A stretch of 63,473 nucleotides of DNA, the filler included, from Hausera hauseri (taxonomy: Eukaryota), in NCBI GenBank assembly GCA_046269625.1. It is 12 parts of 12 records of this genome, joined end to end, with 100 filler letters (N's around TTAATTAATTAA, not from the genome) between each part and the next. Parts side by side here need not be neighbours in the genome. Positions count along the whole stretch, not along the records: positions 19,100 to 23,051 come from JBJURY010862631.1; 11 more parts are not named here. One strand, 5' to 3'. Positions 13,200-49,889 of this stretch are shown piece after piece. Below the pieces are notes generated by a model that ran no database searches, was not told where the DNA came from, and saw only the letters and a list, made by a program, of their open reading frames with translations. Both the position numbers and the translations under genes were made by a program. The stretch's first letter is position 1, and each line of letters starts with the position of its first letter.

Positions 13200-13560
13200 A
13201 CATATATATTTCACAAAAGTGATTGTAATGTAAGCCACAATAAACAGTAATGTCCACATAGTATAGTCAATGGATGTTGATAATGAAATCGATTATATTC
13301 AACACGGTATGATGATGATGATTTTCGTTCAATTTGTGAAACTAACGATGGCGTATAATAAAATCCGAGCGGATCGAATACTCTGACGACATTGGTCGGG
13401 TGGTGGGCGTACACAAATCCAATGTTCGCCCAACAACGATGAAGTGCATGTATTGACAATGAAGCCGCCAGTTTGTTGTAAGTCGCGCGGTACACGGTCC
13501 AGTGGAAACACATCACGAAATTTCACGCTCAAGAGCAGTTTTCCATAGTGACTGAGCTCG
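13200..13560 (-). pseudogene. Maverick/Polinton adenain-like cysteine protease
   Basis: FIVNTCTSSLLGEHWIC, VFDPLG, YQHPLTILCGHYCLLWL; paralog of 27100-27500. Confidence 0.85.
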
Positions 13561-13659
13561 GTGGAGCTAAATGTGAATTAAGTATAATAGTAATAGTAAT
13601 AAATTACTTCATAGTAAGGCGACGACGAAGTAGAAAAGGTGATACACACCGGATTTTAT

Positions 13660-14152
13660 GTTTACAATGACGGTTCCGTTTTTCGTTATTTCAACCTCGG
13701 CATCAATTACACTGTAATTGTACATCATGGTAGATTGCTCCCACGCTTTAGCAAAGTGAAACTCCAGTTGCAGGTTTCCCTGCTGAGGTAGTTGAGTCTG
13801 TTCAACGTCATAGTATGGAGCGAGGACAAAGGTGAAGAATGGATAGGTGGACTTGAACAAATCCATCGATATGGCATTGTTGATGTTTTTGTTGAGCAAA
13901 CCCATGTTGTGCACGACAGATTGCATATATGTTCAAACGTAATCATTAGACTCAAATCTTGTTTGTACATCTCAGTGAAATCCTCATTCCTACCCAAACT
14001 GATGTAATTCACATTGCTATGGGTAAACGTTTCCGAATCGGTCGTGTAACTGCCCGTTTGTTAAACAGTCGTTTCAAATGTAACGAGCACAAATTTCGGC
14101 AATCGCATGTCGCCAAACAGTGCATCTTTGTAAAACGTAGTTGAACCTTTCG
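13660..14152 (-). pseudogene. Maverick major capsid protein, C-terminus
   Basis: FFTFVLAPYYD...QQGNLQLEFHFAKA...DAEVEITKNGTVIV; close paralog of 26580-27050. Confidence 0.85.
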
Positions 14153-19099: not shown

Positions 19100-20183
19100 T
19101 TACCAATGCCATCTTATTTCGTATGATTTAATAATTTAATTTACATTCGTTCAGTATTATTTCTCTATATAAACTTCTGATCTCTTCTGATATAGTTGGT
19201 CAAAAATCGATTTTATTATTGAAGTATTGCGTCAATTTTATGTCCTTCTTATGTAATTTTGTTTTAGCTTGTGCTATCTCCTTTGATGAGAGGTAAATAC
19301 CTTTATAATTGATTTTAGACATTTCGTCATTGCATTTATTGATTATTCCGATAATTTTAAATCTCATCATTTCTTCAGAGTTTTCTGAATATACCACCGT
19401 TGCCACTTCCATCATTTTTACTTCTTTAGCTCCTTCTTTATAGGTCGCCATCTCTTTTTCAACTGTTTTTCCTACCGTTCTATTAAATTTTCCTTCTTTT
19501 AGCAGAGTTAAATGCATCTATTTGAGGATACTTCCCACGTCATCTTAGATTCTCCAGTATCACATTCCCCATTATCGTATTCACACTCACTCATTGTTGT
19601 CATAAGCTTAGTTTGTGAGTCAAATAATCCTTTATACTGCTTTAGTTTGACTTGGTAATCTTCAATGGCCACTGTTCTAGGTGCGATGGTACCTCCAACA
19701 TCATAGTCTACTCCTTTACATGTGCCTTCCATTGTTTTATCTATTCTTCCGGCTCTGAAAATTCGGGTATATTTTATTTTATTTCGTACTGCTGGTATTT
19801 GTGCATTTTGTGTTGTCATGATTCCTATTTTAAATGTCTTGACATTCTGCACGTGATATTATTATTGGCTGAAAAGGCGTCGTTGGTTCTATAGTAGCAG
19901 AATTCCCAGAATAGTATGCACAATTGAATAAAAAGAATGATTTCTTTACAAAATATTCCCTAATTTTCGCTTTGATAAATTCTGATCCCTGGTAGACCCA
20001 ATAACTGTGACCATTACTTGCAATTAACTGTTCCGGGTCTGCTTCAAGGCATTTTCCCAAATCCACCAAGGAGTACTTCTGTCCTTTTTGGGCTTCGAAC
20101 AATTATAAGCCACAATATCCATTGCTTTAGGCATACATATGGATACCATTAATAATAATTGTAATATCTCCATAAATGACATT
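19100..20183 (-). pseudogene. Env-like viral glycoprotein (chuvirus/Jingchuvirales-like Cys pattern), N-terminal half
   Basis: Signal peptide MSFMEILQLLLMVSIC, then IVAYNC...YSLVDLGKC...FNCAYYS...ISRAEC...GTCKGVDY...CEYDNGECDTGE..TW...YFNNKIDF...LYREIILNECKLN. Confidence 0.7.
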
Positions 20184-20239
20184 CAACCTAAGCCTTGTTT
20201 TATTGCATTAGGTGGCATTGATATTGGTTTCTCATATGA

Positions 20240-20700
20240 TCCTCCTTCGAGTCTTATTTTACCACTCATCAGACTTGGTACCCATCCACCTCTATATTGT
20301 ACCCAATTCTCCAAAGTGTCTCATAATATTTTAACCGTTACTTTTATGTTTCTTTCAATTTCTTCTAGATTTGGAGTTTGGCAATTAATAAGAATTACTT
20401 TATATAACAAGTAGGCAACAGCCGTTATAACTTTTTTTCTAGAAATTCCTGTTGCGAACATATTTTCCAATATATCTTGCTCGTGTAATTTATTAATTCT
20501 TTCTTCATTAATATTCTCATAAAACTGCCTGCTAATTCTTAGCATATTATTACGCAACGTCTGAAATAATTCATAGGGTATAGAGATCTGCATGTTGAAC
20601 GATGCAAATGACGTATGTAACTTCGCTAATAGTGTTCTTAACAGAGGGTCTATATCTATTGTTTCCGACGATGTATCCGTTCCTGCCAATAATAGACGTA
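20240..20700 (-). pseudogene. Bcl-2-family domain inside the retroelement polyprotein
   Basis: BH3-like LFQTLRNNMLRISRQF, BH1-like ENMFATGISRKKVITAVAY, BH2-like DTLENWVQYRGGW. BH2 is in frame just past a single TGA at 20321-20323. Confidence 0.7.
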
Positions 20701-20869
20701 GTACTATTTCCTCATTTCTATCTCTTTTATTACGGATATTGCTTATCTTCGTTCCTCTTGGCCTTCTCCTTCTCTTAGCTTCAGTTTGTACCGTAACATC
20801 CTGAGTTTTACCTAATGGTTGTTCTGATGCTTCAGATGGTTGTAATTCCCCTATTATATTATCTATCGT

Positions 20870-21120
20870 TTCTTCCGCTCTTGTATCTGGGTGTATCTCC
20901 GTTATCGTAATCGGGTTATAATTCTCACTTCTACAACCAATTCGTAATAATTTATCATAACTATATAACGCTCTTCCATATAAGCTTAACCCGTATACTT
21001 TTTCTTTATAGAATGGTTCTACTTCTTCAATCTTCTCTCGCAACGTTAATATGTCATCCGTTTCATTCATTCTGAGGATTCCCAAACCTTTGTTTCCTTT
21101 CTTTAGTGTTATTCTTATTG
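20870..21120 (-). pseudogene. Degenerate PDZ-like segment
   Basis: IRITLKKGNKGLGI and IGCRSENYNPITITEIHPDTRAE resemble PDZ betaA-GLGF and betaC-alphaA, separated by an insertion. Confidence 0.4.
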
Positions 21121-21782
21121 ATTCATTTCTTCCCTTTTTATCTATTCCCTTTTCCCCGTGCTATTTCTCTTATTGGACTGTTGTCGTGAGCAAGTAGTAG
21201 TAAATGAAATAAAATTTCATTTATCTTAATTATGGATACTTTACTGTCTATCAGTTTTAATATGGTGCTCATTGCTTGGTTTACGTCGACAATATTTTCA
21301 GGATCAATGACAACTACTGCTTGAATAGGATCATCTTCAGCATCCAAATCGAACTCTGTCTCATGCATTACCTGTTCAATTACGGTTTTGTCAAATATCT
21401 TCGTAGGGTGTACCTCGTTCTCGCTTTCCTCTGATGCTGATTTGCCCTGTTTACTTTTTCTTCGTCCTCTTCTCTTTTTTCCACATCACTTTTCTCCACA
21501 CAGGTTTCTCGGGATTCTACATCTATTATCTTTTTATTACCTTTCTTTCTTCCGTGACGTGGTTTTTCTCCTTTTGGTTTTTCTTCCGTTACATAGACAC
21601 TATTTTCTCTCACTCTTTTCTGTTGGACTTTATAATCTTTTAGTTCCATCTCTAATTGCATTTTCATACGTTGAGATAATATATCATTAACAAAATTCAC
21701 AATTTCTTTTTATCTTTCCTTTTTGTTTCATGTTCACTATCTTCCGTTTCATATTCCTTATCTGATGATTCATTCGAGGTAG

Positions 21783-22800
21783 CTAACGTATAACCTTTTT
21801 TTCGCTTATCACCATTGAACTTTTCCGAGCCTTTTTACATGACCTACGTGCCTTTGCTATATGGCCATATTTATTACAATTAAAACACTTTAATCTTCCT
21901 TCCGAATCTATATTAGGCAATGCCATTCCGTTCTTTGAATCTCTTTTCTTGTGTTTCTTTTCTCCGTTGTTTTTTAATTTAAACCTTACTGTCATTTCTA
22001 CATCTGATTCAGTTTCTGTTGCTGACGTTTGTGACGGACTTCGACTGCTATCATATCGCTGGTATCTTTGGGTACTATTATCCTTTCGTTTATCATAATT
22101 GTTATTATCGTTTCTTGACTTTGTTCATTTATATAATTCGGCGTCCCGTTCAGCTTTTCGTGCTTTCCTTATGGTTTCTTGAAACGTAGACGGGTCAGCT
22201 TGTAAAATTATACTTCTTAACTTTCCTTCTAACCCATACTGGAATTGAGCCAACAGCGCATTACTTCTTATTGCTGCATGAGTATAAGCCCTTGCGGCTA
22301 ACTTTTCTAGTGTACAGGCAAAATCCTAAACCGTATCATTTTTTCATTGCCTCCCTCGTATAAATTCTTCTATCCTCCCCTTTCCAGAGGGATCTATTAG
22401 AAATTTTTGAGGTAACTTCTCTTTGACAGTTTTCCAATCCCTTTTGTCTTCGGTCGGCATCTGAAAGTAAATCGTTAATGCAGTTCCTTTAAGATGGAGA
22501 GGTAATCTGTACATTCTTTGTTGGTCATTCCATCCAAAACTCTTTAAATATACTTCATATTTCATAATAAAATCCTGTATCTTTTTTTCCTAAAAACTTC
22601 TTCATAGGTAAGGTGAAATTCGCTTTAGATTGGATCATCTGTTTTACATTATGGTCGTTTCGAGACATTCTACTATCCTGTTCTTTATTTAAGTTATTCA
22701 AAAATTCCAAAGCAAATGGTACGTTATCGTCGGTTTCGTTCGTCCTAAATGGTGTGCCTTTACGAGCCGTAATTTTGCTATTTCAAGGGTTCCCTAACTT
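21783..22800 (-). pseudogene. Gypsy gag (capsid plus CCHC knuckle), disrupted
   Basis: GWNDQQRMYRLPLHLKGTALTIY, LAQFQYGL...STFQETIRKARKAE, CFNCNKYGHIAKA. Confidence 0.85.
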
Positions 22801-22842: not shown

Positions 22843-23179
22843 GATTGTTAAAATTATTTAGAGTTTACTCAATTACTTTCTTTTATTTATGAATGAAATA
22901 GGACAACAAAGTTTCTCCAATGTCAAAGTATATGTAAATAAACCAAGTCAAGAAATAATATACACATGTCATCAAATCCAATATATTATCAATCACCAAA
23001 AACAAGTTAACAACTTACGTGAGGTCATAGCAATCAACAAAAGAAAACTAANNNNNNNNNNNNNNNNNNNNNNNNNNNNNNNNNNNNNNNNNNNNTTAAT
23101 TAATTAANNNNNNNNNNNNNNNNNNNNNNNNNNNNNNNNNNNNNNNNNNNNAACAGGAACTGCCGCTACTGCCCGAGAA

Positions 23180-23300
23180 ACCCGATGTGTATCGTATTCA
23201 GTAAATTCTATGCTCACGTGGCAAAGGTTGGAATAAACAATATCTCGTCAAGTGGCACGGATACACAGTACCGAGTTGGATTTTTGCATCAAAGATTCAA
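23180..23300 (+). pseudogene. Chromodomain at the C-terminus of the Maverick integrase
   Basis: VYRIQ*ILCSRGKGWNKQYLVKWHGYTVPSWIF, in a frame the ORF track does not show. Confidence 0.75.
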
Positions 23301-24357
23301 TGTGCAGCATTACTTGGTACTTGATAGTAACAGATCACTATCACAGTATGATGAAAATGACAATACCGCTAAACAGTTTACCATGTACTTTGAACAACGC
23401 GTCGATTTACTCAACGGAGCCTGGGAAGTGACTTTGACGGAATTCACATTTACATTTATACCAATGAATATACGTCAGAACAGTGGTATTTATTTAACAC
23501 GACAAGAAACGTACCCTATTTCAAATAGTTTGCGGACAATCCGACACAATAACCGATATACTCTTCGCAATTATTAGCGAAAAAATTTCTCAGTTTATGC
23601 TTATTTTCCAAACTACCGCATGAAACTAATGCATCGAAATCCCATTAAAATGCAGTTTAATTCTATAGCTGATGCTCAGGCATGTGGTGTTCAATCAGTC
23701 AATGTACACTCAAAACTTCTACGGCTTGGCGGACATGTTATAATTGGTAAAAAATTGGACCTTTTATCCAATGCGGAATCCGATATTATAGTAAAGTGGA
23801 CTAAGTCAGAATCAGTCTGCCGTTCATATATTATACAAAACGATTTATCAATGGAAACGGAACTGGAATTGTGTGAATACGTCAAGAAAACGGCTACATT
23901 AGCTGCAAAGACATGTGAAATAAACGCCGATGGCCATATTTTGCTTACACTACATGACAATGTAAGATATTTTGCTTTTGATGAATTATTGGCTCAGACT
24001 CTGGGTTTTTCAAAACGCGAATTATATTAAAACATTGTTGGACGATCTATTGTTGCAAAATACAAACTACAACTCTATGGAGCATTTTATAGAATCAACA
24101 TTTTGACTGACTTAGCCGAATCTGTACTCCTTGGTTGAGAACGTAAACAACTAGTGGCTTCTATCGAACTGAATTTTGACGCGTACAAAACATCGGCTGG
24201 AACTGTTCGCGTAAATATGCTCAGACCCATATACTTATCATTGTCTCACAATATTGTGCACAGTATTTCCGTGTATATGCTTCATGAATTTTGGGAACCC
24301 ATTAAATTTCTGTTTGGGTCAAAGACACATTTGACATTACATTTTCGACGTCGATAA
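23300..24357 (+). pseudogene. Maverick minor capsid (penton) paralog 1
   Basis: HYLVLDSNRS...NTAKQFTMYFEQRVDLLNGAWEVTLTEF ... PIYLSLSHNIVHSISV...THLTLHFRRR. Confidence 0.75.
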
Positions 24358-24393
24358 TAAACAAACTGCGTCATCACCATCATCATCGAGATC

Positions 24394-25471
24394 ATGAGTA
24401 TTTACATGGTGTTGCCGAGCAACAGTTGTCCAACGACTCGTCCGAACAAATCCGCTAGTGAATACGTTGTATATTGGAACAATCCTTTGAATTTATCTGG
24501 AAAATAGGATGTTGCAATGACAGAATTTAACTTTCCCTACGCACCGGTGATATTAAAAGGTTGTATGAAAATAATGTATAACAAGACTGTTACTGAAACC
24601 AAAACACATTCTTATCCTGTGACACTTACTAACAATAAAATAACGTTTGGAGAATCAGCCATTTGCACGACCAAAGCAAATTACGGTTCAAACTGAAAGA
24701 TCGGTGTTTCTATTTTAGATCAATACTTACATTTTATGGCAGATTTTGAATTTACTGTTACCTTTGAGTCCTCTGATATGGCGCAGAAATTTGGATTCAA
24801 AAATACAGAGTACAAAGTTAACATGTTAAAAGTGAAAAGTGTAGTTGGTCCAAGATTAAGTCCTGTATATTACCAGACAACGGTAAAATTTACCTATACA
24901 GCAGTAAAGGTGTCATCTTCATACGTATCGATTGAAGAAAATGTCTGTTGCGAATCTGTAGCACATCTCTGTCAACATTTCTCTTTAAATCAAAAGTACA
25001 AAAAAATATTTAAAGTTTTCGATTCAGATGCAAATGAGTTCATTAAATTTGATCTAGCTAAGGATATTGTCGACATTTTATTGGACAAAGCTTTGGCCAT
25101 GACATTGGGTTTTTGAAAAACAGCGCATTAAGGCATCGACGGCGGTGGCACATGTTACAACACTTAAACCCAAAATGAAAACTGCTCTAAGTCAAATGTA
25201 CATTTATGTGAACGTCACCGAACCAATTTTGGTCGGTGGAGTACGTGTACCGCTACTCCGTGCAATTTATCCGGAAAGCAACAAGTATACTGCTGGCGAC
25301 AATTATACTGTCAAGCTCGATAATCCAATGTACCTACCTGTGGCATCTACATCTATAAATAATGCTAAAGTGAATATCCGATGTGACGCGGGCTACCTCA
25401 TTGAATTTCCGTACTTTACCACAACCAGTCAAACTCTTTATTTCCGTCGAATCCAACAACAACATTATTGA
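24394..25471 (+). pseudogene. Maverick minor capsid (penton) paralog 2
   Basis: MSIYMVLPSNSCP...LNLSGK*DVAMTEFNFP ... IYVNVTEPILVGGVRVPLLR...PMYLPV...TLYFRR. Confidence 0.8.
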
Positions 25472-25479
25472 TTCCGAAA

Positions 25480-25830
25480 TCGTTTGCATTTACAGTAAAC
25501 CCAAGCAGGGTGGTGAACTTTCGTATTTTGTTTGCAAACAGTATGGCTCTTCTTGGTTACGTACATTGGCACGTTTAGCATTTCCGGTGTTGAAGCGCAT
25601 TGGAGCATTCGCAGCAAAAGAGCACAGGTCATACTATATGAAAAGAAATCGATTTTACCATCATTGGAGGAACACGCCTTATCAGAAATAAAAAGCACTG
25701 CACCGGATATCGTTGAATCAGTCAAAAAAGAATTCTCTGGCAGTGGCTTGAGAAAACGCCGTAAAGCATCATCGAGCTCACCAACCATAAGCAAACTTCG
25801 TCGTCGTACGATTTTTGAATTACCGACAAA
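25480..25830 (+). pseudogene. Maverick small basic core protein (adenain substrate)
   Basis: KQGGELSYFVCKQYGSSWLRTLARLAFPVLKRIG ... SGSGLRKRRK...RRRTIFE. Confidence 0.6.
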
Positions 25831-27050
25831 TGGCATCTGCAAAATCTGAATTGTGTATATTTGAAAATGGCGCACCACAAGTTATTATTGACAATTCGGA
25901 ATTTGAAGAAATCTATCCCGTTGAATCCGTTTCAACGGACGATAACTTTGACATTCAATACAATATTATGTCATCGTATAATGAATACCTGGATTTGAAC
26001 GATACGCTACTCTATGTAAAAGTCATTGGTAAAAAGATGCATCAGCGGTTCTCGCTGCAACAGACACTGTCACAACGCCCAATTACCTTTTCCTCACACT
26101 GTTCCAGGAGGCTTCACTGACTGTAAACAGCGTTAAAATCGAAGGCAAAACTAGTCTATACAGTATCAAAGCACTCATTGAAACGGCTCTGAATTACAGT
26201 ACTAACATGAAAACGACTCTTTTGACGAAAATCATGGAATATAACGCCACTGCAGCAAACCCTCAGGCATGGATGGCAGAATTAAAACCACTTACAATGT
26301 GTAAACCGCTGTACTTTGACGTTTTCGATCAGCCAAAATACCTACTGCCCGGTGTTAAAGCTATGATTCGGCTCAAATGCAGCAACAATGTCTTTTGTTT
26401 GAAAATCGCCGTTGCAAATCACAAACCCATACTTAAAATTACCGAGGCACGATTATACATACGTCGGGTAAAGGTAGAACCATCTGTGCTCATTGGACAT
26501 AGATTGGTTTTGGAAACGCAAAATACCTCTTACCCGATACACGGACATAAGTCGTGTTTTACACCATACCCAAAGGTTCAAAGACGCACTGTTTGGCGAC
26601 ATGCGATTGCCAAAATTTGTGCTCGATACATTTCAAACGACTGTTCAACGAACGGGAAGTTATATTACCGATTCGAAAACGTATACACATAGCAATGTGA
26701 ATTACATCAGTTTTGGTCGGAATGCGGATTTCGTTGTGAGACATACAAACAGGATTTAGAGACGGTAGATTATGTTTGCATATATGCAATTTATCGTGCT
26801 CAACATGGGTTTACTAAACAAAAATGTCAACAATGGCAAATCGATGGATTTGTTCAAGTCCACATATCCATTCTTCACATTTGTTTTGGCTCCAGATTAT
26901 GACGTTTGAAAGACTCAACTATCTCAGCTGGGAAACCTACTACTGGAGGTTCACTTTGCTAAAGCGTTGGAGCAGTCTACAGTGATGTACATTTACGGTG
27001 TATTTGATGCCGAGGTTGAAATAACGAAAAATGGAACCGTCATTGTATAA
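25830..27050 (+). pseudogene. Maverick double-jelly-roll major capsid protein
   Basis: MASAKSELCIF...YLDLNDTLLYVK; DVFDQPKYLLPGV; ITEARLYIRRVKV; frameshifted. Confidence 0.88.
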
Positions 27051-27099
27051 ATAAAATCCGTTGTGTCTCACTTCTTCTTGATATTATAAATTAATTTAT

Positions 27100-27500
27100 T
27101 ACTATTATTACTATTATATTTAATTCACATTTAGATCCACCAAGCTCAATCACTATGGAAAACAGCTCTTGGGTGTGTAATTTCGTGGCATGTTTCCACT
27201 ACATGGTGTGCCGCGCAATTTACCACAAAATGGCGGCGGTGGCTTTATTGCCAATACACACACGTCATCGTTATCTGGCGAACATTGGATTGCTGTGTGC
27301 ATCCACCATCCGACCAACGTCGTCAGAGTATTCGATCCGCTCGGATTTTACTACCCTTCATCGTAAGTTTCTCAAATTGAAAGGCAATCACCATCGTCAT
27401 ATCGTGTTGAATACAATCGATTTCATTATCAACTTCTACTGACCGTATTCTGTGGACATTATTGCTTACTGTGGCTAACGTTACAGACACGTGGATGAAC
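27100..27500 (+). pseudogene. Maverick adenain-like protease
   Basis: FRGMFPL...FIANTHTSSLSGEHWIAV...VFDPLG...FCGHYCLLWL. Confidence 0.85.
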
Positions 27501-28558
27501 AATGATTATTGTACTTTGTATTCATTTAGAGAGAAATACATTATTTTTGTTACATATGTGTTATTATTGTCATCACTTCGAAGTCCCTTTGCTACACGCA
27601 CATAAACACGTCACAACNNNNNNNNNNNNNNNNNNNNNNNNNNNNNNNNNNNNNNNNNNNNTTAATTAATTAANNNNNNNNNNNNNNNNNNNNNNNNNNN
27701 NNNNNNNNNNNNNNNNNATTTATTGTTGTTTTTGTCGATCTTGATATTTTTTGTCGTACTTTTTTGTGGATCTTCTCATTCGGTGATTGCAATATATACA
27801 TATTTGTTGACCAAAGTATATATATATATACATATATATCTTTGTATTTTAACCTAAAGTTGTGAGCGATGAAAAAGATAATAGGAAATTATTCGGAATT
27901 ATTTTGAAAAAAATTCGGTTTTCATTTGAATATTTTAATATAGATTTCTGCTGTTTTTTCTTTTTTTTGGTTTATTTCTTGTGATTTGTTTGTTATATTT
28001 GTGCAAATGTGATACGTTTTAAAGCTTGTTGTTTTCTCGTTTCTTGGACAAATTTCAATGGGAGTTGTATTGAAAACATCGAATAGTGTCATTACTTTCT
28101 GATGTTAGCTTGATGTTTGTATCGATTTTGATTAGTTGAATTATATTTGGAATGTTTTAGTACGAGTAATGAAGTAGAAATAAATCCGTTCTGAGTTTAG
28201 TTTTTACTGTAAATGGATTTATTTTTATTAAATTTACTTTTTGGAAAGTTAGTCAACTAAAAACAGTTCCTTCCTTTAGACTTCTGGCGTTTGGACTGCC
28301 CTCATCAGAATAAAATTTCTACTTAATATATATTTTACTCGGCCATCGTTTTAAAATTTATCAGTTTTTTTGATAATGGTTTGTAAATTTGTGCTCATGT
28401 GGACGACACTAACGTAAGTTTAAATACAGAGTGATCGTCAAAAAATCGAATATTAGTGTCGGCTATTTACGCTAACTGATATCCGATTTCTGCTGATCAC
28501 ATTGTAAATCATGTTTGAGTCTTCTACTATGTTCCTTCTTTGACGTATCATTGGATAA

Positions 28559-31935: not shown

Positions 31936-33599
31936 CCATTGCTGTCTGGAACGTGGCTGGAGCATTCATCATTCCAAACGCTATGCGGATAAATTTATAA
32001 TGCCTATCTGCAATCACAAACGCTGTTTTTTGTTTATCTTCTTCTTGTACTTCTATCTGCCAGAAGCCTTTTTGTAAGTTTAACGTAGTACATAACATTT
32101 TATCCTTTAATTTATCCAATATTTCATCAATTCTTGTCAACGGGTACGTATTATCTACTGCTACACCATTTAGAGCGAGGTAATCCACACATTTTGATGG
32201 ATCCATCTTTCTTTTGTACCATTACAATGGGAGCTGTCCATAGGGAATTACTTGGTCTAATTATATCATTTTGCCTCATTTCGGCTATTAATTCCTTAGC
32301 TTTTTCTCGCTTATCGTAATTGATCCGATATGGCCTTTTCTTAGTAGGAGTTTTCATTCCAGTTTTTAGCTTAATCTCATGCTTGGTGACGGGTATTATA
32401 CCAATATCACATTCATCTATAGTAAAAGTATCCTTATATTGTTGTCGTACCTTCTTTCTCCACACCTGTCAGTATGCTACCATTTCCAAACAAATCATGA
32501 TCGTTCCAGTTAATAGGAGTCTTAACAAATTTTGTTATTTTCTTATTTCTATCAAGATGACTTTTCAATTTATTCATTGGTACATTTTGTAATCGTATTC
32601 CGGCTTCTATTCGTGGTTTATGTTGTTGTTTTTCCATGAATTCAGACAGTTCCTGTACCGTGGAAATAATAGTTTTAGTTGCATTATTGCCTATATCTTT
32701 TATGATATATACGTAGGCAATCCTTATGCCTTTTCTCCAATAGTTTCGGTTTATTTGAAGTATAAGCTATTCGAACAATTACTTGTTGTTCCCGAATATT
32801 TTCGATCTTGTGCGCGATCCACAATTCATTTTTATCCATAAAGTTTACATTTTGTTCGATGTATACATCTCCTTCATCTCGTCCTTGTACTAGGGCTTTA
32901 AGCACAATCTCTCTTCTAGCCGATGCTAACACGTCTTCCTTAATGGATATTGTGTCCTTTTTCTTGTTCTTTAATTTCCGGCATGGTTGGATTTGTTGGG
33001 TCTCCAAATTTATACACATATTCTTTAGTTTTGCTAACGCGTCACAACCAAGTATAGCTTCTGCCACCAATTCATCGGCTATTCTGAATCCCCGTTCAAA
33101 TTTTTGGTTAAGGACCTTTGTCTCACATTTAATCAGATCTTTTACTTGCACTCTAGAACCGAATGCTGCAACATTCGTAATGTCTTCTGCGGGTTTTTTT
33201 AAACTTTTTCTTCACTTGTTCTGGCAGTTGTTTACGTGAAATCATTGAGGCTGATGCTCCAGTGTCAATTATAGCAGTTATAGGATAGCCATCTATCCAA
33301 ATTACTGTTCTGGGAATCACCTTGCCTCCGTCTATACTAGTTATCAATGTCTGTCTTGGAGCCGATGGATAAAACATCAGATTTACATGTTTTGGGTCAT
33401 CATTATCCATACCGCCTGAACAATGTACATCTATGTATTCATTGGGAGGTATAAAGTGTGACCGTTCCATTGGATATTCAATCCATTTTCTTATTCGTGG
33501 GATATCCGATAACAATGTTCTTCTCTTTTTACTTCGGGCGGTGATCAGACTCCATATCTTCTTAGTATTTTCTACTGGTTTAAGTCTTCTTACATTCAT
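31936..33599 (-). pseudogene. Gypsy protease and RT N-terminus
   Basis: AIIDTGASASMIS, AILGCDAL, WTAPIVMVQKKDGS, YPLTRIDEILDKL...KGFWQI...KTAF. Confidence 0.9.
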
Positions 33600-33689
33600 C
33601 TTCTTTACTGAAAGTTTATCTTCATCATTATTATCATTTTCCTTATTCTTGCTTTTATTTTTCTGTTTCCATTCAGCGGCTTTTTAAAT

Positions 33690-35030
33690 CAAAAACAACT
33701 AGCTATGGATGGAATCCTAACCATCAAGAATTGAATTGACCAAACCACATGTACCATCTCCATTCGGTTGCAAATATATCCTTATCTATTTTCTTTGCAT
33801 AGTCAGGTCCCACCAAATTTTCTGAGTTGGCTTTTCAGATGTCATCAGCTAACACTTTCGTCGCCATTTCTATTTAAACTTTGTCTCTCTTGAGAGAACA
33901 TCATCATCCTTCTATGGTTTTCCATATCTTGTTCGGAGTACACGCCCACCTTTACTAAATCTGTCAATGGTTTATACGTTTGTTCAATTATCAAATTAAT
34001 TAAGATAATTCTCCGAGGTGGAGTAATCTGCTGCTTTTTCGGCATCCTTATCCATAAATTGTCGCTTAGTCGAAATGCTGGCGACATGGTATATGTACAA
34101 TTCTGATGTATATATGGTTTTTCTGCTGGATCCAGCAGTATCCGTGTTATGGGTTGTAGAAAACGCGGCTTTTCCTTGTACCATACAGGTAATTCCATAG
34201 TACAATCAGTAGTTGGTCTTAATTTGACAGTTACTTTTGTACACTCGAAGGTTACAAGAGTTTCACTTATGGTTCGAGCAAATTTTCCTTCTGCGTCTGG
34301 TGATTCGGCTGGGTCTTTTATTATTCCGTCCGTTACTGATGATAAGTATATCCGATTTCTGATTATCTCTATTCAGTTTACAATCGTTTAATATTATCTC
34401 TCGATACATGGCATAAATATTTTCTTGCTGAAAATGATCAATCTTGTTGTCAAAATAGAGGTGGGGTTTCACCTCTGATTTATCAGTCTTCCTCTTAGCT
34501 TTTGCTACTTCTGTTGTGGATAGAAATATCCCTTTATAATTTGTTCGAAATACCGTGTGTTCACATCTCCTGGTATCACTTTCTAACTTAAATCTCATTC
34601 CATCTTGAAGATTTGCTGAATATACTATAGTAGGGATCTCAATAATATATGATACTTGGTCTATTCTGCTCTTAGATATCTCTTCTTTGTACATTAGTCC
34701 TTTTGCTTCATTAAACTTTCATACTTTTAATAAAGCTAACTAACACTGCTCCTTATCGACTTAATATGACATAACTGACTCGCCAGGGTTACATTCTTTA
34801 TTATAATAGTCACGTTCAGAAAATGTCATCATCTTTCCTGAGGATAGTTCAAAGAAGGCATCATATTCTCTCAGCTCAACTTGATAATCTTCTATGGCTA
34901 CTATGTTGTCCAAAATTTCACCATTAATATGATATGACACGCCCTTACAATATCCTGTCTTGTCAACTGTTCCAGCCACAAAAATCCTTTTATTAATAAT
35001 TTTTCCTTTTTGAGCCTTTGTTAACACTGG
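33690..35030 (-). pseudogene. Env-like glycoprotein directly upstream of the protease (paralog of 19100-20183)
   Basis: GYCKGVSY..VAIEDYQV, YFDNKIDH..MYREIILNDCKLNR, CTMELPVWY..KPRFLQPITRIL....NC; C-terminal aromatic/TM segment WRWYMWFGQF. Confidence 0.75.
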
Positions 35031-36999
35031 GGTCAAATGCAAGCATTTGACCTTTACATATGTGTCAACATATAATGGGTTAAAGGGGTATGTTAAGGTT
35101 AGAGTAAGGTAATCAGTCCACATGTTCCTTTTCTTACCAATTGTGTTACCTTCATTTCTATTACTTGAATATATTAACTTCATTATTTATGTACTTTTAC
35201 TTTTATTATTTTTTGCATCTTCTTTGATGAATGGATTCCCAAGCACAGGCTCCATTCAATGACGTCATGTTTTCCTCAGCAATAGATCCGAATAAAGTAT
35301 ATTTAATCAATAATTATAATCCATGTTCGACGGTTCTTATCAAATAATCATTAGTACCGAATCAAAAGTCAAATCCATTTGCTTTAATCCGAAGTTGTGT
35401 TCAATCGCTGAATATAGATCAAACCACAGAGTTCTGTATACTTTACAATACAAAACTTAAAATACTTTACAACAATAATTACGTATATATATTTTAAGGA
35501 AAAATACGAATTCATTTAATATGATTGATTTATTCTCCATCTATGGCAACCCGGGTATATCGATCTCACAATATCGTTATCAAATCAATTTTTATAGAGG
35601 ATTATATGTAGGAATATTTTCGAAACCTCATTATCATCTCTAAAGCCCGTTAATTGATGTTAAATAAGCGACGGTTCTCGTTCTTTATCCATACCCACAC
35701 TTAATAATTTATCTAACGTTCAGTCTTAGTCTCATAATTCATTCTCTGTTTGTACTTTCTTTTATTCCCACAATAGTAAAATATATGTTAAACCTTCGTT
35801 ACTATCATTTTTCCAATTTCTTTCGTAAGAAAATATTCTTGTAAAGGTGATTAAGTGAAGGTTCTTTAATTCCGTGACACCATCCATCTCTCTATCAAGG
35901 ATCGTCTTCATCTGTTATCCCTCAGCACTACAAGTGATTGAATTATTTACAATATCTGAAAACAAAACTTTGTACCAGCGTTTATATCTGATCAATTTTA
36001 TTTCCATCTACATCATACTCAAAGTTGATGTTACAGTTAAGCAAACTTATCATATAATTACTGTTAAATAATTATTAGAATTGTTGAATAATATTCATAT
36101 AACTACAATTCCCAAACCATACATTCATTTAACTATAACAGAACAATAGTTATTATTGAAGCCAAAATCTTAAGCCCTTTCATTTTATAGATATACAAAT
36201 TATAATATTGACCCTGTCATTGTCCATGTCATATCTCATTCTACTCCATTCTCTTTATTTATTCATGTCTTTACATAGAGTTGCCTTGATAATTTTACAC
36301 TAATTTATTTGGATTCTACAACTATCATAGCAGTCTCTCATTGTGATTTTCATCTAAATACATTATTATAATAGTATTTATAACTTTAACCCATTAGATT
36401 ACTATCCTCATCTTTTACGATCAAATTCCACTGCAGTCTTAAACGGTAAACAGGTTGTGACGACCCTAATATCTAAAGTTAATAACATCCTTGCTTTATC
36501 ACGAACAATTACTTCATAGTCAATATTCTTGATCAGAAAAAATTTTTTAATGATCATGTGATGATAGTTCCGTTGAGGAGTTCGTTGAAACCACATTACA
36601 CGATTACATACCAAATTTAGCTGCAATCTTTCAACCATCCTAATCACAGGTACACTCTTTACATCATATAATATGCGTCAACTCTACTCTTCGTCTTTTC
36701 CGTTCATCTCCTTTTTGCGAGATTGATATATGCTCCATATGGTATCGAACTAATTTCATACAAATATGTTAGTAGGGTATTCTCTCTGTCCGTACCATAA
36801 CCATTGAAAACGCATACATAAAATGTTTGAATAAGAGGAAGAGGTCCACGAATATCATCTCATGCGCCCTTTCGAAGCCAATTTAATAGGATATTTATTN
36901 NNNNNNNNNNNNNNNNNNNNNNNNNNNNNNNNNNNNNNNNNNNTTAATTAATTAANNNNNNNNNNNNNNNNNNNNNNNNNNNNNNNNNNNNNNNNNNNN

Positions 37000-39930
37000 A
37001 TAATATGTCCCAGAAAATTAACGCGTTTTTGGAAGAAGTTACATTTTGCAAAATTGATCTGTAGGTTGAACTGATTGAATCGTTTGAAGATAGATCGTAG
37101 GTGTTTCTTGTGTTGTTTAATAGAAGAAGAAGCAACCAAGATATCATCAATATATGGATGTGCGAATGTGAAGTCTGAAAGGATTGAACCTAAATGTCGC
37201 TGAAAAGTTTGCGCAGCATTCCGTAGACCGAAAGGCATATACAAGTACTCATAAAGACCAAAAGGTGTGGTAACCGCAGTTTTCTCGATGTCTTCCGGTG
37301 CGACAGGGATCTGGTGGTATGCTTTGCTTAAATCGATTGTTGAATAAACTGTGGTAGAATTAAGCCGATGTAATATATCCTTGATCAAGGGTAGTGGATA
37401 CGCATCCATTATGGTCAAAGTATCAAATTGGCGATAATCGCCGCATAATCGAAAAGACTTATCTTTCTTTTGGACAGCGTGGAGAGGCGAAGACCATGGG
37501 GATTTAGATCTACGAATAATACCTGATTTTTCGAGTTCGAAAAAATCCGCCTCTACTGCTTGCCTGCAACGAGGTGACGGTGGACGAACCTTTTGTCGAA
37601 TTAGTCTTTGGTGGAGTGTAATAATATGATAGTAAATGCCGTTTACAGGAATGAAATTCTGATCTTTTTGAAGTATACGAGGACAAGAAGTATTAATGAA
37701 TTGTTCTATGCTTACGGGTAATTGCTTGAATATTGTGAGTGACGATGAACCACGGATGCTGGCAGTACTTGGGGTATGTTGACTGACTGTTGGTGAGGAA
37801 TCGAGTGGAGTTTGAAGTAGAATGGTCCAGTATGGGACCTTATTTGAGTAAGTGTAGTTGTTCAATAATTTTACTGAAGATACCGGATCGTGAATGTTTA
37901 CATTGAGCTGTGACTGACTATCGACGTTGTCCTTTGGAAGCTTACAATGTAAAACGTGATAGTTAAGAGAATTAGTATGAAATATAGATCGTTTTAAAAT
38001 TGATTACCTACTTACAGTTGGCTGTGATGTCGGCGGGGTGCTGTCTATTTCTGTGCCACAGTTTTTAAGAGTATTTGATTTCAGGCATCGTTGGTTACAA
38101 TCGACTAGCAAGTTGTAGTGTGACAGGAAATCGGAGCCAAGTATTGCCATCTGGACGTTAGGGACTGTAAACGTGCAATAAAATGGTGAGAAAAATTTTG
38201 GCAGAGTAGATGATAATTTGCAAGTTCCGGCGATATGAACAAGTTGACTGGAGGCGGTGTATAAAGGTTTTGTTTTAAGTGAAGAATGCTGAACCGGAAA
38301 AGAAAGTGGGAGTAGTGAGATCGCTGCACCGGTATTGATGATAAAGTCTACCGATTAAATGTTAGAAGTGGAGATAGCAGCTTTTAGTGTAAAGACTGAA
38401 AATGAAATGTGTCGGCAAGAGGAATTAGGTAAGATGCCTTTGCCAGAATCTGCTTATAATATTGGCGAAAAATCAGTTTTTTGGATTGGTGAGTTAGGAC
38501 GGTTAGTGTTAAAGAAACTGAAACGTCTATCCGTGGTGTAGTTATTGTTAGTTTTATAGTTACAGCCTGAAATACAATTCGGAGCATTAGATCCAAATTT
38601 TGCATACTAGATGCAAACTATGTTATCTGAGTGTAGAATTGGCGAATAATTTCTACACCCTAAATAGCATTTATTTGCTTTGATATTAAATTTGTTACGG
38701 TAATAACATATAAATAACCGCGTTGGTGACGGTGTTTGATTTCTTGAAAGAGAACGCGTTTAATGAGGCAAGGAAGTATTCCGTCAATGTAAGGAAAGGT
38801 CATTCAGCTTATAATTGATGGTGTTGATCATATGTTGTAGTGCAGCATTTTCGGCGCGTAATTGGTTCAACTGGTGCTCGATAGATGTATGTCGTTGATT
38901 GTCATCAGTTGTAATTGCGGTTGATATGATGGGTGGTCTTTATTGGCAAATTCAGCTAGTTTATATAAAGCTAAAGAATCCTCAACAACAGTAAATAAAG
39001 ACCTAATTTGAATGGGTAAAGCATTAAGGAAATATCGGCGAAGTAGATCCGGGTTGTGTTCCTTGGTGACACCCAAGGTACGTAAGTGAGCCAACAAGGT
39101 GCGTAAGAAATCACTAGGTTTTTGTGTACCCATTGCGTTTTCATTAAAGAAGCGTTGCATTATCGAGTCAAGTGGTGGTTCTGTCAGTTTTAATACAGCA
39201 TTGAACAATTGCTTATAAGGGTCAGGGTGTTGAAAGATGTCCAGTAAGTTATGAATTGAGGCCTTTATGGACTTTGATAGAAGGTAGAGATTATGAGCTT
39301 TTGTTAATGAGTCGGTAATGCCGTTGGATTGTAGCCAAAGTTGATGGAAGTAGAGCCAAGTCTTATTAGAATTTTTATTATCTGTAAAATATTCAGAGCA
39401 ATGTAAGGGTGTAATTGTGGGGTTTCTATGAGGAAAGGTAGTGTCGGTTGTAGATAGTGGATGGTTTGATTTTAGATAGTAGACAATGGATTTGGGTTTT
39501 GCGGTCACCTAATCTGTGATGTCACTGGGTGGTGAAGAAATCATACCGCCGCGGATTCTAGGGTGTATGTGAATACAGAGGTTGTATTGTGAGGACATGA
39601 TGTGTGGGAGCTCAGTTAAAATGAAACTATTGTGAGTCAAATAGAAGTCATTGAAGGCGGTGGCTCTGTAGATGAAGTCATATAATTGTGACGTGTCGAT
39701 ACGTTGTGTGATATGTGCGGTATGTATTAATTTATTATTTACAGAAAGGTGGATGGGAAATGACGTTGGTAAACAACAAGATGGGTAGTGTGGTATCTCC
39801 ACACATTTTATCGGGTGGATTCGATTTTCTTTTTAACAAAGAAGTATTCACCACTGTACAGTGACTCGTGTAATACATTCCAGGATTCCGTACCTGGTTT
39901 GTAGATACGTGGGAAATATGCACATATGAA
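37000..39930 (-). mobile_element. Gypsy LTR element: Ubl-gag, protease, RT
   Basis: gag DPYKQLFNAVLK...QKPSDFLR; RT SPWSSPLHAVQKKD..CGDYR..DLSKAYHQIP..MPFGLRNAAQTFQR..YIDDILV (open 37000-37865). Confidence 0.9.
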
Positions 39931-41622
39931 ATTAAATACTTTTGTCAATGCCTGAAAATGATATCTGTTTCCAGAATAGGTTGGAAAGAATATTGGGACA
40001 AAAGCTAAAAGAAGTGCAGAGAATTTTGGAGAATTACAGAGTTAGTTTTCCGCCGTTTATGAATAAAAGCCCAATGGACTTAGAATACGTCATAGATATC
40101 GTAATAAAGCGTATCCTTAGCTCGAATTATTAATCAAAGGCTTCGAGACATACGTAACCGCGTTCAATTACCAGTGTCGGATGCAATCATGTACGCCGAT
40201 AGATGGAGAGTGGGTAAAGCCCAATCATAAAAGTATGGGCCAATATTCTCCAGTAATTCACAATCGTTTTAGATGGATAACAATTTCTCAATGTGCGAAA
40301 GAATAGTAGCAAGACCATCCTGCTTATCCGCATCAGCATATCGCATGGCTATTACAAAACGTGACCCCACGAGCAACGGAAAGAAACTCTCATTGGCCGT
40401 CTGAATATACTTTGTAACAAAATTCGTCATTTGGACCTGTCGAAAGGCGTCGAGATTCCCTTCGGAGAGTTCGGAAAATATATAAATCAGGTAAAAACTT
40501 GTAATTAGTTTAAAAAAGGCATCGCCAAAGCATACCAAACTTTCATTTCCGAACCTACTTGATCGTGTTATATGTTAGAAAGGGAAATGCGACGTTACAT
40601 TTACCACTTTACTCAAATATTTCTTTCTGAAAGATCGATAGAGGAGGGATTTGTCGCCGTATTCAATGTGTCTTACTCCATAAGTAGTCGTTGTGTTCTG
40701 GAAGTGATCGGGGTTCGTTCCATAATTTGCGTTGCGATAAGATGGACGGATCAAGGCTTGATGTAACAATGATTTTTCTTTAAACATGTATTTCGAACTT
40801 TCCTCAAGTTCCAAGGGAGAAAAATGAAAGTGTATATAACATAAAACACTTGGAATTAGTAAGGCAAATTGTACAATATCGGTACAAAATCCTGTCTTAA
40901 AGAACCCATCAGAACTAATTTCAGCGGTAAATTCGTGACGTTGAATTCCGTTCATTTCAAAATTTTCAAGCAATCTTGCAATAGTTTTGAGTTCGGAAGT
41001 ATTGTCCTTGATAACAACGGGTCGATGCAGAATCGGGTACTAAAGTTTGAGACGCAATATATCCGAAATGTCGAATAGCACTCTTCCATTATCAATAAGC
41101 CATGTAAGAATGATGTCTGTCGATAACAGTTTAACGCCTTTCTTTGACGGTGGTCTCTCAAATCTCGGCAATGAGTATATAACTCGACAACTGCATGTGT
41201 TGTTTAAGTTAGGTGGCCACCGTTTCTTATCCGGTAATTCGAGAAGTTCTGTACACGGATAATCGGTAATCGAATCAAGACTACGAACGGTAAAATCGGT
41301 CGGAAAATCCTCTTCCACCAACGTATATAATATGCAATATTGTATCTGACAATCTGGCATGGTAGCATTTTAACGAAGGGTTTATGGATAAATATAGGGA
41401 ATCCTCTAAATGTAAACGATTTATCTTTGTGTTTGGTTAGTGTTGGTGTTTGTGACGGAAAATATGTCAATGGATAGGTTATCAGTTGATAATGATGTAA
41501 TTTTCCACAGTTATTAGAATTCAACTGAAAAATTAAAAAGGGCGTTTCGCCCGGAAAATCATCGTGTAAATGACCGATTTGGTACTTGGATTCACAAGAA
41601 CATGCAGGTCCATCGTTATGCG
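39930..41622 (-). pseudogene. drosha: Drosha fragment (central domain through RNase IIIa), intronless, internally deleted
   Basis: NDGPACSC...HDDFPGE...NNCGKLHHY; SSDGFFKTGFCTDIVQFAL; LLHQALIRPSY..NYGTNPDH; NESLVCFGDA (for NERLEFLGDA); LSEGNLDAFR. Confidence 0.88.
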
Positions 41623-41806
41623 TTACCTGACAAACGGAACAATGAACCTTTGACGCACACGGATTGCATGTCGTATAGTTATTGTGCCAAATACCCTGTG
41701 ATTCGGGATCACGACGGCCACAAAACTGACAAATCACACAATTTTGACATTTCCAACTTCCTTTTGGTACTTCGTTTAGGGGTGGATCCAAACAAAATGT
41801 ATGATA
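41623..41806 (-). pseudogene. KMT2C/D (MLL3/4, Lpt)-like PHD finger fragment
   Basis: LDPPLNEVPKGSWKCQNCVICQFCG...WHNNYTTCNPCASKVHCSVC. Confidence 0.75.
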
Positions 41807-46860: not shown

Positions 46861-47639
46861 NNNNNNNNNNNNNNNNNNNNNNNNNNNNNNNNNNNNNNNN
46901 NNNNTTAATTAATTAANNNNNNNNNNNNNNNNNNNNNNNNNNNNNNNNNNNNNNNNNNNNATTCGAAAACAATCCTCCTCTAAACAATCCATCTATCACA
47001 GAGTACGAATTCATGTGACAACAGACTATTTGTCCCAGCAAAAAAGCATTCTCGTAACCTATCAGCGATTCGTGACATCTCAAATGTCATGGGCAAACTC
47101 AAAAACTAAATCTTTTCTAACTGTTGCAATTGTTGTACTTTTCAATTACGTTACGGATTTTATCTTTCAGTGGTTTTTGTCCATTCATATATTATCATAT
47201 ATACATTATCAATCGTTATAAATTTTCTATTTTTATCGCTCGAAACTTACGGTAAATTTCATTCACATTTATTTCACTACTTTAAAATTGTGTTCTTTAT
47301 GTTCTGTTTTAATTTTACACGTCAATCTCTTAAAGGCTGTTGTAATGCTAATCAATATGTTACTTATTATTCTTGGTGGATTTAAATTTATTGTTCATAC
47401 AAAAATATTTAATGGATTAGGTAATAGCAGATACCTGACACATGGAGTTGTGAAATTTGTTGTTGTTTTATACAAAAAGTGTAATTTTAAATTTAATTTT
47501 ATTTTACCTTTTGTTTTCATTTTGTATAGTTTATTTACTTTTTGTAATTTAATGCAAATAAATTGATTTTAAAGACAATTTTTAGCTGACATTTTGTTTT
47601 TTGTATCGCATGTTTTAGATTTGTAAATAATAAATGTGT

Positions 47640-48627
47640 CAGAAGTGGGATGTACATACTTCCGATGGAGGAAAAAGATAAAATAATGACAATTCCTAGT
47701 GATAATCCTGAATGGCGTGGATTGCTGTCGAAAATTGTCTCAAAAGCCATTCAACGCTCACCGATTATTGACATTCGTCATGTACATCTCCAACATGGAA
47801 TTAATCATTATCGTCAATTGTTGCGTCGACAATTAGCAGAAGTATTGTTGCGTGTAGTTTATCAATTAAATTATGCGTTCTATGCAGTTGACAGTGAACG
47901 CCAATCGACACCAGCAAACAGGACACCAAGTTCTGCGGTGATGTGGTGACAACCAGCTCGTTATTCAAGTGATCGTTTCTCTCCCTGCGAACATCATTAA
48001 GAAGTTATCTTGATGCTACTCATTAGTGAATATCTAGTAAATCAAGAAACGGTTCTTAATTGGTCTGCCGAATTGGCCGATGCACGCATTTCGACATTGT
48101 CCAATTCACAGGCAGTTTATGATCTTCTACCAATTGCATTATCTCGGCGATCATGCTTCCCATATTTATCACAATTGCTGCAACATGCCCAACGGTTTTC
48201 CTATCAAGAATTCCACATGTAGTACCAATTGGCGTTGTCATTGGCCAGCAGTACGCAGTTCTATCGGGCATATCTTGTACATAGAGAATGTCAGAGCATT
48301 GACGAAAATAAACCAATGGTCTTCTTACTAGGTGCCCGACTTTGTTTAGAACGTCTTTGGAAAATTGATGAAGGTTCACAAATGGCTGATAGAGCACTTG
48401 AACTTTATAAACAAGTTGGCAGTGCATATATGTTGGCAAGTAGTCCGTTCTTGGTCGGTCGTGGGTTTTCGTTACTTGCGTCTCGATGTCGGGTCGTCGA
48501 GAATCGCCGGTTGTTCCAACAACGTGCAATCCAAGAATTCCCAGCTGCTGCAGAAGATGATCAGAATGATACGATTTGTTGATACCATTTGGCACTTGAG
48601 CAGGCGTTCGCTCGGCAATTATCGGAT
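47640..48627 (+). pseudogene. TTC7: TTC7-like TPR protein fragment, intronless
   Basis: RQLAEVLLR; EVILMLLISEYLVNQETVL; AVYDLLPIALSRR; RFSYQEFHM*YQLALSL; LLGARLC; YHLALEQAFARQL. Confidence 0.85.
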
Positions 48628-49218
48628 AAAATAATCGAGCATTTGAAAGATCTATCATCACTGGACACTTCTCTACCATCAATTCCGGCAACACTGTCCG
48701 AATTCAGTAGTAAGCTTACTGATCATACAATCAAAATGTTAAAAAATCGTCACACCTTTGTTCACACGTATTTCAGCAAACTGGTTAAATGCGATTATTA
48801 TATGAGTCACGTGTTGCGCGTACGTTTACAGGGCATTAAATGTCAGGAATGTGGGTTTTCTTGTCATCATTTGTGTATGAAAATGGTTATTGAAAACGAA
48901 TGTTACGATTTACTAGAAGTACGCTGCCGAGAATTCGAATCGATTCCTCGAAAGAGTCTACCGCAATTGCAAACATGTAAGAAACGCGATACGAACGAGG
49001 GCAACGTCGCGTTATGCAGTCAAGGCTTTTCCAATATCACTTTGTCATCGTTACCACTAGACAGATATCCGTTAATAAAATCCGAGTTCCCCTGTCTAAC
49101 CAATGTCCACTCGTCGGTCAGTCGAGCCGCTTCCGTCTTTGATCTCGCCGTCGTTGGTGGCCGAAGGACACAAATTGTGCAAGGTAATATTTTTCCGTTA
49201 CATTTTGCAGAAATGTAA
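48628..49218 (+). pseudogene. C1 (DAG/phorbol-type zinc) domain fragment fused in frame to the TTC7 piece
   Basis: HTFVHTYFSKLVKCDYY...QGIKCQECGFSCHHLCMKMVIENEC. Confidence 0.75.
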
Positions 49219-49339
49219 TCCTTTCGCCCCTTACAAACTTTTGTTTCATAATTCCATGGCAGAGCCAAAATAAAGATGAATTGTACGCAACTGCCCAAAA
49301 TAATTTTAAACGTTTGTTGGAAGTAGCTTTATCGAGTTA

Positions 49340-49590
49340 AATCAATATCTGACAGCCGTTAGATGATCCGGAAATTTTACAGAAGCTACATGAAATAACA
49401 AATACGATCAATGAACCCATAAATAATTGCTATCTGGTTACTCAGGTTATGCGTGATTGCTCTAATGGCAATTACGAATCTATGAAGGAATATACAATCC
49501 GTGGCTGTGACGTAAATGAAGTAGGACATGATGGCGAAACTGCTCGCGTGTGTGCAACTAACACAAACAGTTATAAACTTTACTTGAATC
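49340..49590 (+). pseudogene. Ankyrin-repeat fragment (Mask/ANKHD1-like)
   Basis: DPEILQKL...MRDCSNGNYESMKEYTIRGCDVNEVGHDGETARVCA. Confidence 0.5.
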
Positions 49591-49889
49591 GTATTAAATC
49601 TTGTATTTCTATGAATGACAAAGTCCGTGCCGTTAGATTTCATCCGAAAAATCTTCACTTAAAATTCGGTGAAATAGTAATGCAGGCACCATTAACCGGA
49701 TTGTGTTATTAATTCCGACAACAAACCTTTTCAAATCGCTCTTGGTGCACCGGGACATGAAATTATCATCAATAACGTTTCTATCCATGGCGACATTTGT
49801 AATTTGTTCATAAACAATGAAATCATTTCAGTTCAGTTTATTTTAAAAGATAAGTTATTTGTCCAAATAATTCTCGAAATTCCTTCGCA

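Follow-up and report, generated by a model that had tools for sequence, protein, structure and literature searches.

Does a Ty3/Gypsy retroelement of Hausera hauseri encode a Bcl-2-like domain, and what might such a domain do for the element that carries it? Among large DNA viruses, the capture of Bcl-2 is frequent. In the literature searched, a retroelement Bcl-2 occurs in the planarian Burro elements only, as an annotation, and no functional study of one was found. A sequence-only reading of the locus had described a Bcl-2-like domain inside a Gypsy element and had supposed that it protects the cells in which the element replicates. This report presents the setting, the sequence evidence, the predicted structure and the possible roles of that domain.

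The window, i.e., the whole stretch of DNA that was analysed, is 63,473 nucleotides long and consists of 12 contigs with 11 identical spacers between them (N's, an all-frame stop and N's). Since the contigs are simply joined by these spacers, features that lie on separate contigs are not neighbours in the genome. The Bcl-2-like copy is located on the minus strand of the contig at 19100-23051 (3,952 bp, 34% GC), which holds neither pol nor a long terminal repeat (LTR). It belongs to a Ty3/Gypsy element that carries an envelope, and the host is likely a triclad.

Organization of the element

The frame of interest had been placed between gag and a glycoprotein, and this is where it lies, with a gag capsid and zinc knuckle on one side and a Monjiviricetes-type envelope on the other (Table 1). 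A charged, coiled stretch follows gag and leads to a small helical segment, which forms four helices in a low-confidence AlphaFold model and has no convincing Pfam family. The minus-strand frame at 21160-20183 spans both the ubiquitin-like and the Bcl-2-like parts. The ubiquitin-like segment has a single, weak Pfam match and no match among PDB sequences; its order in the low-confidence AlphaFold model is beta-beta-alpha-beta-alpha-beta. Weak Pfam matches to SNF2-rel_dom, EF-hand_11, PAS_8 and PDH_C were dropped, none being common to the window copy and its relative P0003.

Table 1. Features of the Bcl-2-like copy and of a related element in the window
Feature	Position	Strand	Basis
Gag capsid and CCHC zinc knuckle	21837..22589	-	Pfam zf-CCHC E 4.5e-4, Retrotrans_gag E 0.11; stops and a frame change break the frame
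Small helical segment between gag and ubiquitin-like domain	21156..21356	-	17/67 (25%) identical to P0003 365-455
Ubiquitin-like domain (weak)	20903..21133	-	Pfam ubiquitin E 0.048, the only Pfam match for the segment
Bcl-2-like domain, one TGA inside	20261..20725	-	Pfam PF00452 E 7.6e-6, 26.8 bits, TGA read as X
Degenerate BH1, GISRKKV	20429..20449	-	aligned to BH1 of BOK and BAX; Trp and Gly of NWGR absent
In-frame TGA just before BH2	20321..20323	-	no stop at this place in P0003
BH2 motif, LENWVQYRGGW	20282..20314	-	two codons after the TGA; aligned to BH2 of BAX, BAK and BOK
Second in-frame TGA, between Bcl-2 tail and env signal peptide	20183..20185	-	P0003 continuous here
Hydrophobic env signal peptide, in the frame of the Bcl-2-like domain	20117..20182	-	hydropathy up to 1.8
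gB-type / Monjiviricetes fusion glycoprotein	19100..20116	-	Pfam PF24664 E 7.3e-5; frameshifted, cut by the contig end
Related element on a separate contig: env, then aspartic protease, then reverse transcriptase (RT)	31936..35093	-	PF24664 E 2.4e-25, RVP E 9.1e-6, RVT_1 E 9.5e-10

A search with phmmer against 1,835,955,588 representatives returned a single match, P0003 (E 3.4e-54, 40% identity). This single-member ENA record comes from a contig of 4,786 bp and has 1,130 aa in one unbroken frame: gag, CCHC, ubiquitin-like domain, Bcl-2-like domain, signal peptide and gB-type glycoprotein. The window copy is colinear with P0003, and neither of its two TGA codons has a counterpart there. Its capsid matches Drosophila Arc2 (E 0.0068), and Pfam recognizes a ubiquitin-like part at 473-522 (E 0.031), Bcl-2 at 651-748 (E 0.055) and the glycoprotein at 793-980 (E 6.3e-19). 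The capsids of the two copies are identical at 75 of 147 positions (51%), the window env blocks are 43-50% identical to those of P0003, and a hydrophobic stretch at 783-810 of P0003 corresponds to the env signal peptide of the window copy. Absence of the domain from other family members had been named as grounds for rejecting it; P0003 carries the domain. Because P0003 perhaps derives from the same or a close species, it counts as a second subfamily rather than a second host.

The in-frame stops in gag and the frame change in env indicate that the window copy is dead. Programmed read-through of the TGA need not be invoked, given the several other stops and frameshifts in gag and env and the lack of a stop in P0003.

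Other searches for relatives added little. Word-based searches found no homologue among 5533 candidates (P0003 was missed as well), P0003 as the query found only itself among 7998, and an RT fragment found one among 37, a Gypsy polyprotein at 46%. Scans of viral and metagenome contigs yielded no related loci, and the ESM Atlas gave no usable match for P0003 601-760. In run X1, possibly the source sample, 6162 contigs map to the element, and their coverage includes gag, env and the Bcl-2 part; these contigs are short, none spans the stretch, and their depth is not copy number. By identity, 213 are at 99% or more, 691 at 95-99%, 2,898 at 90-95% and 2,360 under 90%. The TGA site is not among the 40 of 407 differences listed for this run.

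Sequence evidence for the Bcl-2-like domain

The query was the 155-aa translation of 20725-20261 with the TGA translated as X. Its match to PF00452 (Table 1), the best that it has in Pfam, and that of P0003 (14.5 bits) both miss the gathering score of the family, 31.4 bits. The NCBIfam model bcl-2 (TIGR00865) matches the window domain as well, at E 0.015. Bcl-2-family proteins (BAX, BOK, BAK and one schistosome protein) make up 24 of the 27 PDB sequence matches at E<=10; these have E-values of 0.16-1.9, cover a4-a8 including BH2, and are mostly redundant constructs of a handful of proteins. Searching the PDB with a two-sequence profile gave poorer scores (3 matches, E 1.3-2.1). The window domain and P0003 are identical at 68 of 155 positions (44%).

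When only the part upstream of the TGA is scanned, the Pfam Bcl-2 match is absent. The ORF track therefore hides the domain, and the signal leans largely on BH2. The sequence-only reading had noticed exactly this arrangement, LENWVQYRGGW just past a single TGA and out of sight of the ORF track, and Pfam bears it out by reporting Bcl-2 on read-through only. The domain itself, as proposed there, keeps its profile match, at a score below the Pfam cut-off and with a fold that lacks structural confirmation. On these sequence comparisons, the domain at 20725-20261 is very probably a real Bcl-2 homologue.

BH motifs and conservation between copies

The BH2 motif (W-x-x-x-x-GGW) ends the helical bundle of the window domain and is found at the corresponding place in P0003. 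A hand-written pattern of the BH2 type matches the window a single time, and 200 shuffles taken together gave one match. The BH1 motif is degenerate: GISRKKV pairs without gaps with GITWGKV of BOK, and Trp and Gly are replaced. P0003 likewise lacks both residues in BH1, so the loss is a trait of the family, not decay. Two candidates for BH3, LLAKLHTSF (20632-20606) and MLRISRQF (20545-20522), are both without the Gly-Asp core; judged by the usual spacings, one lies too distant from BH1 and the other too close to it. The Pfam Bcl-2 model is matched from position 13-14 onward in the window copy, and from position 6 in P0003.

Three motifs, BH3, BH1 and BH2, had been reported in the correct order. 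BH2 and a degenerate BH1 hold up; for BH3, neither candidate helix could be fixed as the motif. The BH1 had further been likened to divergent viral Bcl-2 proteins that lack NWGR; NWGR is indeed missing, but F1L keeps the Gly, which is needed in Bcl-2, KSHV Bcl-2 and F1L alike according to the available part of PMC2836074.

Conservation was compared along the frame in the two copies, which are probably of the same or a close species. Identity is highest at BH1-a5 (15/24, 62%) and BH2 (9/15, 60%), and a6 is identical at 11 of 23 positions. The other blocks of the domain are a1 and its loop (6/22), the a2 candidate (10/23) and a3-a4 (17/45); the flanks are the ubiquitin-like domain (28/78), the linker (18/65) and the tail (3/20). 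The core of the domain as a whole (54/111, 49%) is conserved to the same degree as the capsid and env.

Predicted structures

AlphaFold models built from two-row alignments have a pLDDT of 40.8 for the domain and 31.8 for the 1130-aa P0003. The domain model (pLDDT 41) has seven helices of at least 4 residues and a hydrophobic a5, in an order that fits the Bcl-2 layout. With this model, 36 of the 42 Foldseek matches listed belong to the Bcl-2 family, with Bcl-xL ranked first, at E-values of at least 0.42 and TM scores below 0.3; matches of this quality largely repeat the sequence signal. Foldseek with the low-confidence model of the 1130-aa P0003 returned unrelated rows only (E of at least 0.06). 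The wide VIA-align search listed no Bcl-2 row among 50 matches, an uninformative outcome given the poor model; its best match, from that same poor model, was an Mga regulator (Z 6.6, rmsd 4.4, 91 aligned). The predicted models neither confirm nor refute a Bcl-2 fold.

Relationship to Burro elements

The sequence-only reading had mentioned Bcl-2 domains in planarian Burro elements, and the available sections of PMC6431247 agree: ubiquitin/SUMO-like, BCL2, env and protease (PR) parts lie in one polyprotein. Burro, or GYPSM1, is described there as a giant Gypsy element of Schmidtea mediterranea and Dugesia tigrina, more than 30 kb long, whose ORF1 of 4,873-5,140 aa encodes gag with 2-3 CCHC motifs, MATH, a Ubi2/SUMO-like domain, BCL2, env, PR, a dUTPase-like domain and RT. 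In the same sections, the Burro env matches mononegaviral fusion proteins, BIR and ankyrin motifs occur in the same elements, decaying Burro fragments are reported from Dugesia japonica, and the role of the Burro BCL2 in apoptosis is given as unconfirmed (PMC6431247). Burro receives no more than a mention in PMC11410931.

The position of pol can be seen on the contig at 31936-36899, which holds another copy, without a Bcl-2 part, whose env is 69-73% identical to that of P0003. There, env is followed by protease and RT, so env precedes pol. The spacer between PR and RT is about 150 aa long; a dUTPase called in it by eye has neither a Pfam match nor a relevant PDB match.

As in the published description of Burro, then, P0003 has gag, CCHC, ubiquitin-like domain, BCL2 and env in one frame, and env lies upstream of PR-RT on the contig just described. 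In contrast to the 2-3 CCHC motifs of Burro, one CCHC is seen in the window and P0003 family. Env begins at about residue 805 in P0003, and RT would begin at about 1,800 (an estimate across two copies), compared with the 4,873-5,140 aa of the Burro ORF1; the contigs behind these figures are 4-5 kb long. In P0003, the stretch from gag to env gave no Pfam match to MATH, BIR, ankyrin or RING. The family is probably more compact than Burro, a comparison made by description, as far as the source describes Burro, with the C-terminus of pol and the LTRs outside the contigs. None of the searches brought up a Burro sequence. The element is very probably of the Burro type. The gag-Ubl-BCL2-env-PR-RT arrangement is already published for Burro in the sections at hand, and the window copy and P0003 represent a further, divergent family with that arrangement.

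Flatworms, nematodes and bryozoans also have GAG-ENV-POL errantiviruses with a gB-type envelope, as described in the available parts of PMC13524379. Like Smed_errantivirus_1-6 in those parts, the present family has GAG-ENV-POL order and a gB-type env, and P0003 has VYQE, ELRE, KMMT and TNYKG in common with them. In the env table of that paper, 13 of the 14 occurrences of these four motifs are in S. mediterranea rows; the motifs were picked after viewing these rows, so the count indicates that other phyla lack them and does not identify an unbiased nearest neighbour. Judged by sequence, and within the portion of the paper available, the motif match points to the Schmidtea clade. The string 'bcl' has zero occurrences in the available text and 7 supplements of PMC13524379.

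Other elements in the window

The window includes several further mobile elements. At 37000-41806 (minus strand), a Gypsy gag-PR-RT follows two pieces, one from a PHD finger (Pfam E 6e-4) and one that is RNase III-like (E 0.048); both are possibly captured host fragments. A second Gypsy family, whose gag resembles by eye the one at 38870-39508, occupies 46961-52459 (plus strand); before its gag are TTC7_N-like (E 6e-4), TPR/ANAPC3-like (E 0.0014) and C1 (E 3e-8) domains, and these pieces may be intronless fragments of host genes. Related copies, 81-88% identical, lie at 23152-27617 (plus strand) and 13210-14130 (minus strand). They look like the capsid region of Polinton/Maverick elements; Pfam has no family for 26033-26689. 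Fragments at 52560-56540 (plus strand) resemble, when inspected by eye, a protein-primed DNA polymerase of the Polinton/adintovirus kind. A LINE-like element, again recognized by eye, runs from 57366 to 61264 (minus strand); its ORF1 has 374 aa and its endonuclease-RT frame 916 aa, and the sequence upstream of it recurs about 2 kb away (61291-61437 and 63326-63473).

Possible functions of the domain

The best overall explanation is a dead Burro-order element with a Bcl-2-like domain that is likely host-derived and would sit at the ER and delay cell death; taken as a whole, it has about an even chance of being correct. The domain would have been captured from a host Bcl-2 gene. The element would make one polyprotein. 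Within it, the signal peptide of env would insert into the ER and thread the glycoprotein in. Signal peptidase would then release the glycoprotein, with the signal left in place to serve as a tail anchor some 30 residues past BH2. Cellular Bcl-2 proteins carry a tail anchor at a comparable place. The anchor would place the Bcl-2-like domain on the cytosolic face of the ER, the protease of the element would cut the ubiquitin-like/Bcl-2 piece from gag, and the domain would bind host pro-death Bcl-2 proteins via a remodelled groove or another surface. Cell death would thus be held off while particles are made.

Taken alone, a pro-survival function is tentative, falling just short of an even chance. 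It is suggested by three analogies: Burro pairs BCL2 with BIR, planarians have Bak/Bcl-2 and mitochondrial apoptosis (in the accessible part of PMC7022251), and the poxviral Bcl-2 DPV022, which has no recognizable BH motifs, is anti-apoptotic and binds Bak, Bax and Bim (in the accessible part of PMC11209288). On the other side, the nearest weak PDB matches are the pro-death proteins BAX, BOK and BAK. The anti-apoptotic role supposed in the sequence-only reading is plausible, and weaker than stated there, both copies being without the BH1 Trp and Gly.

Because the BH1 Gly is gone in both copies, a non-apoptotic decoy stays a serious rival to the pro-survival reading, unlikely as it is. The fold would no longer use the BH3 groove and would act as an innate-immune or stress decoy or as an adaptor, like poxviral A46, A52, B14 and K7; the neighbouring ubiquitin-like domain might help by bringing in a ligase or the proteasome. 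Both copies have lost the Trp and Gly of the groove, BH3 is beyond recognition and the core is still conserved, all of which fits such a role, as do the ubiquitin-like domain directly upstream and the existence of non-apoptotic viral Bcl-2 folds (PMC7022251, parts available). However, BH2 is nearly intact, no partner is known, and the BIR domains of Burro elements point to apoptosis (PMC6431247, sections at hand). A broader statement of this kind, in which a compact flatworm lineage retains, as the core of the Burro cargo, a Bcl-2 fold without the BH3-groove signature that is tethered to the ER by the env signal peptide and works in a non-canonical way (as an immune or stress decoy, or by membrane remodelling) instead of sequestering BH3 proteins, is doubtful, at somewhat less than one chance in three.

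It is improbable that the domain is of the effector type (BOK/BAX-like), anchored at the ER and remodelling or permeabilizing membranes for budding or release, or killing the producer cell late. The top weak PDB matches are BAX, BOK and BAK, BH1 aligns without gaps to BOK, and the ER localization of BOK (PMC11209288, in part) is consistent with the predicted anchor. Yet these matches are redundant constructs of a few proteins at E 0.16-1.9, Foldseek with the domain model puts Bcl-xL first, the BH3 required by pro-death members (PMC7022251, parts available) is not recognizable, and an element of the germline gains little from killing its own cell.

A structural spacer or matrix-like module with no host target, joining gag to the membrane-bound env precursor, is very improbable. 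Its in-frame position directly before the env signal peptide and an overall conservation equal to that of the capsid and env would suit it, but conservation peaks at the BH1 and BH2 positions, and the gag-env-pol survey of three phyla (PMC13524379) makes no mention of such a domain in the parts available, which do not look for accessory domains. Least probable of all is a chance match of an unrelated helical bundle with a W-x-x-x-x-G-G-W look-alike: the score below the Pfam cut-off, the loss of signal without BH2 and the want of structural confirmation (no Bcl-2 among the 50 VIA-align rows listed, from a poor model) are set against the Pfam E-value, the same family matched in two copies 44% identical, a predicted helix order that fits Bcl-2, and a position after the ubiquitin-like domain and before env that is the published position of the Burro BCL2 (PMC6431247, sections at hand).

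With the pro-survival reading as the tentative preference, the two copies suggest that the Ubl-Bcl2-env block persists in a divergent, probably smaller lineage and is constrained there at BH1 and BH2. The domain is small and natural, and it lends itself to the question of how a retroelement deals with cell death in flatworms rich in stem cells.

Comparison with viral and cellular Bcl-2 proteins

Among cellular proteins, BOK, BAX and BAK are the best weak sequence matches of the domain (E 0.16-1.9), over a4-a8 including BH2; unlike them, the window domain has the BH1 Trp-Gly replaced and no recognizable BH3. Among viral proteins, F1L, DPV022, KsBcl-2 and A46/A52/B14/K7 are likewise divergent, parasite-borne Bcl-2-like domains whose BH motifs are eroded and which have a hydrophobic segment at the C-terminus. 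In contrast to F1L, which keeps the BH1 Gly in the source as available (PMC2836074), the domain of the window copy and P0003 is without it. Viral Bcl-2 proteins are encoded by free genes, whereas this domain is part of a retroelement polyprotein, and its predicted anchor, unlike theirs, is the signal peptide of the envelope protein.
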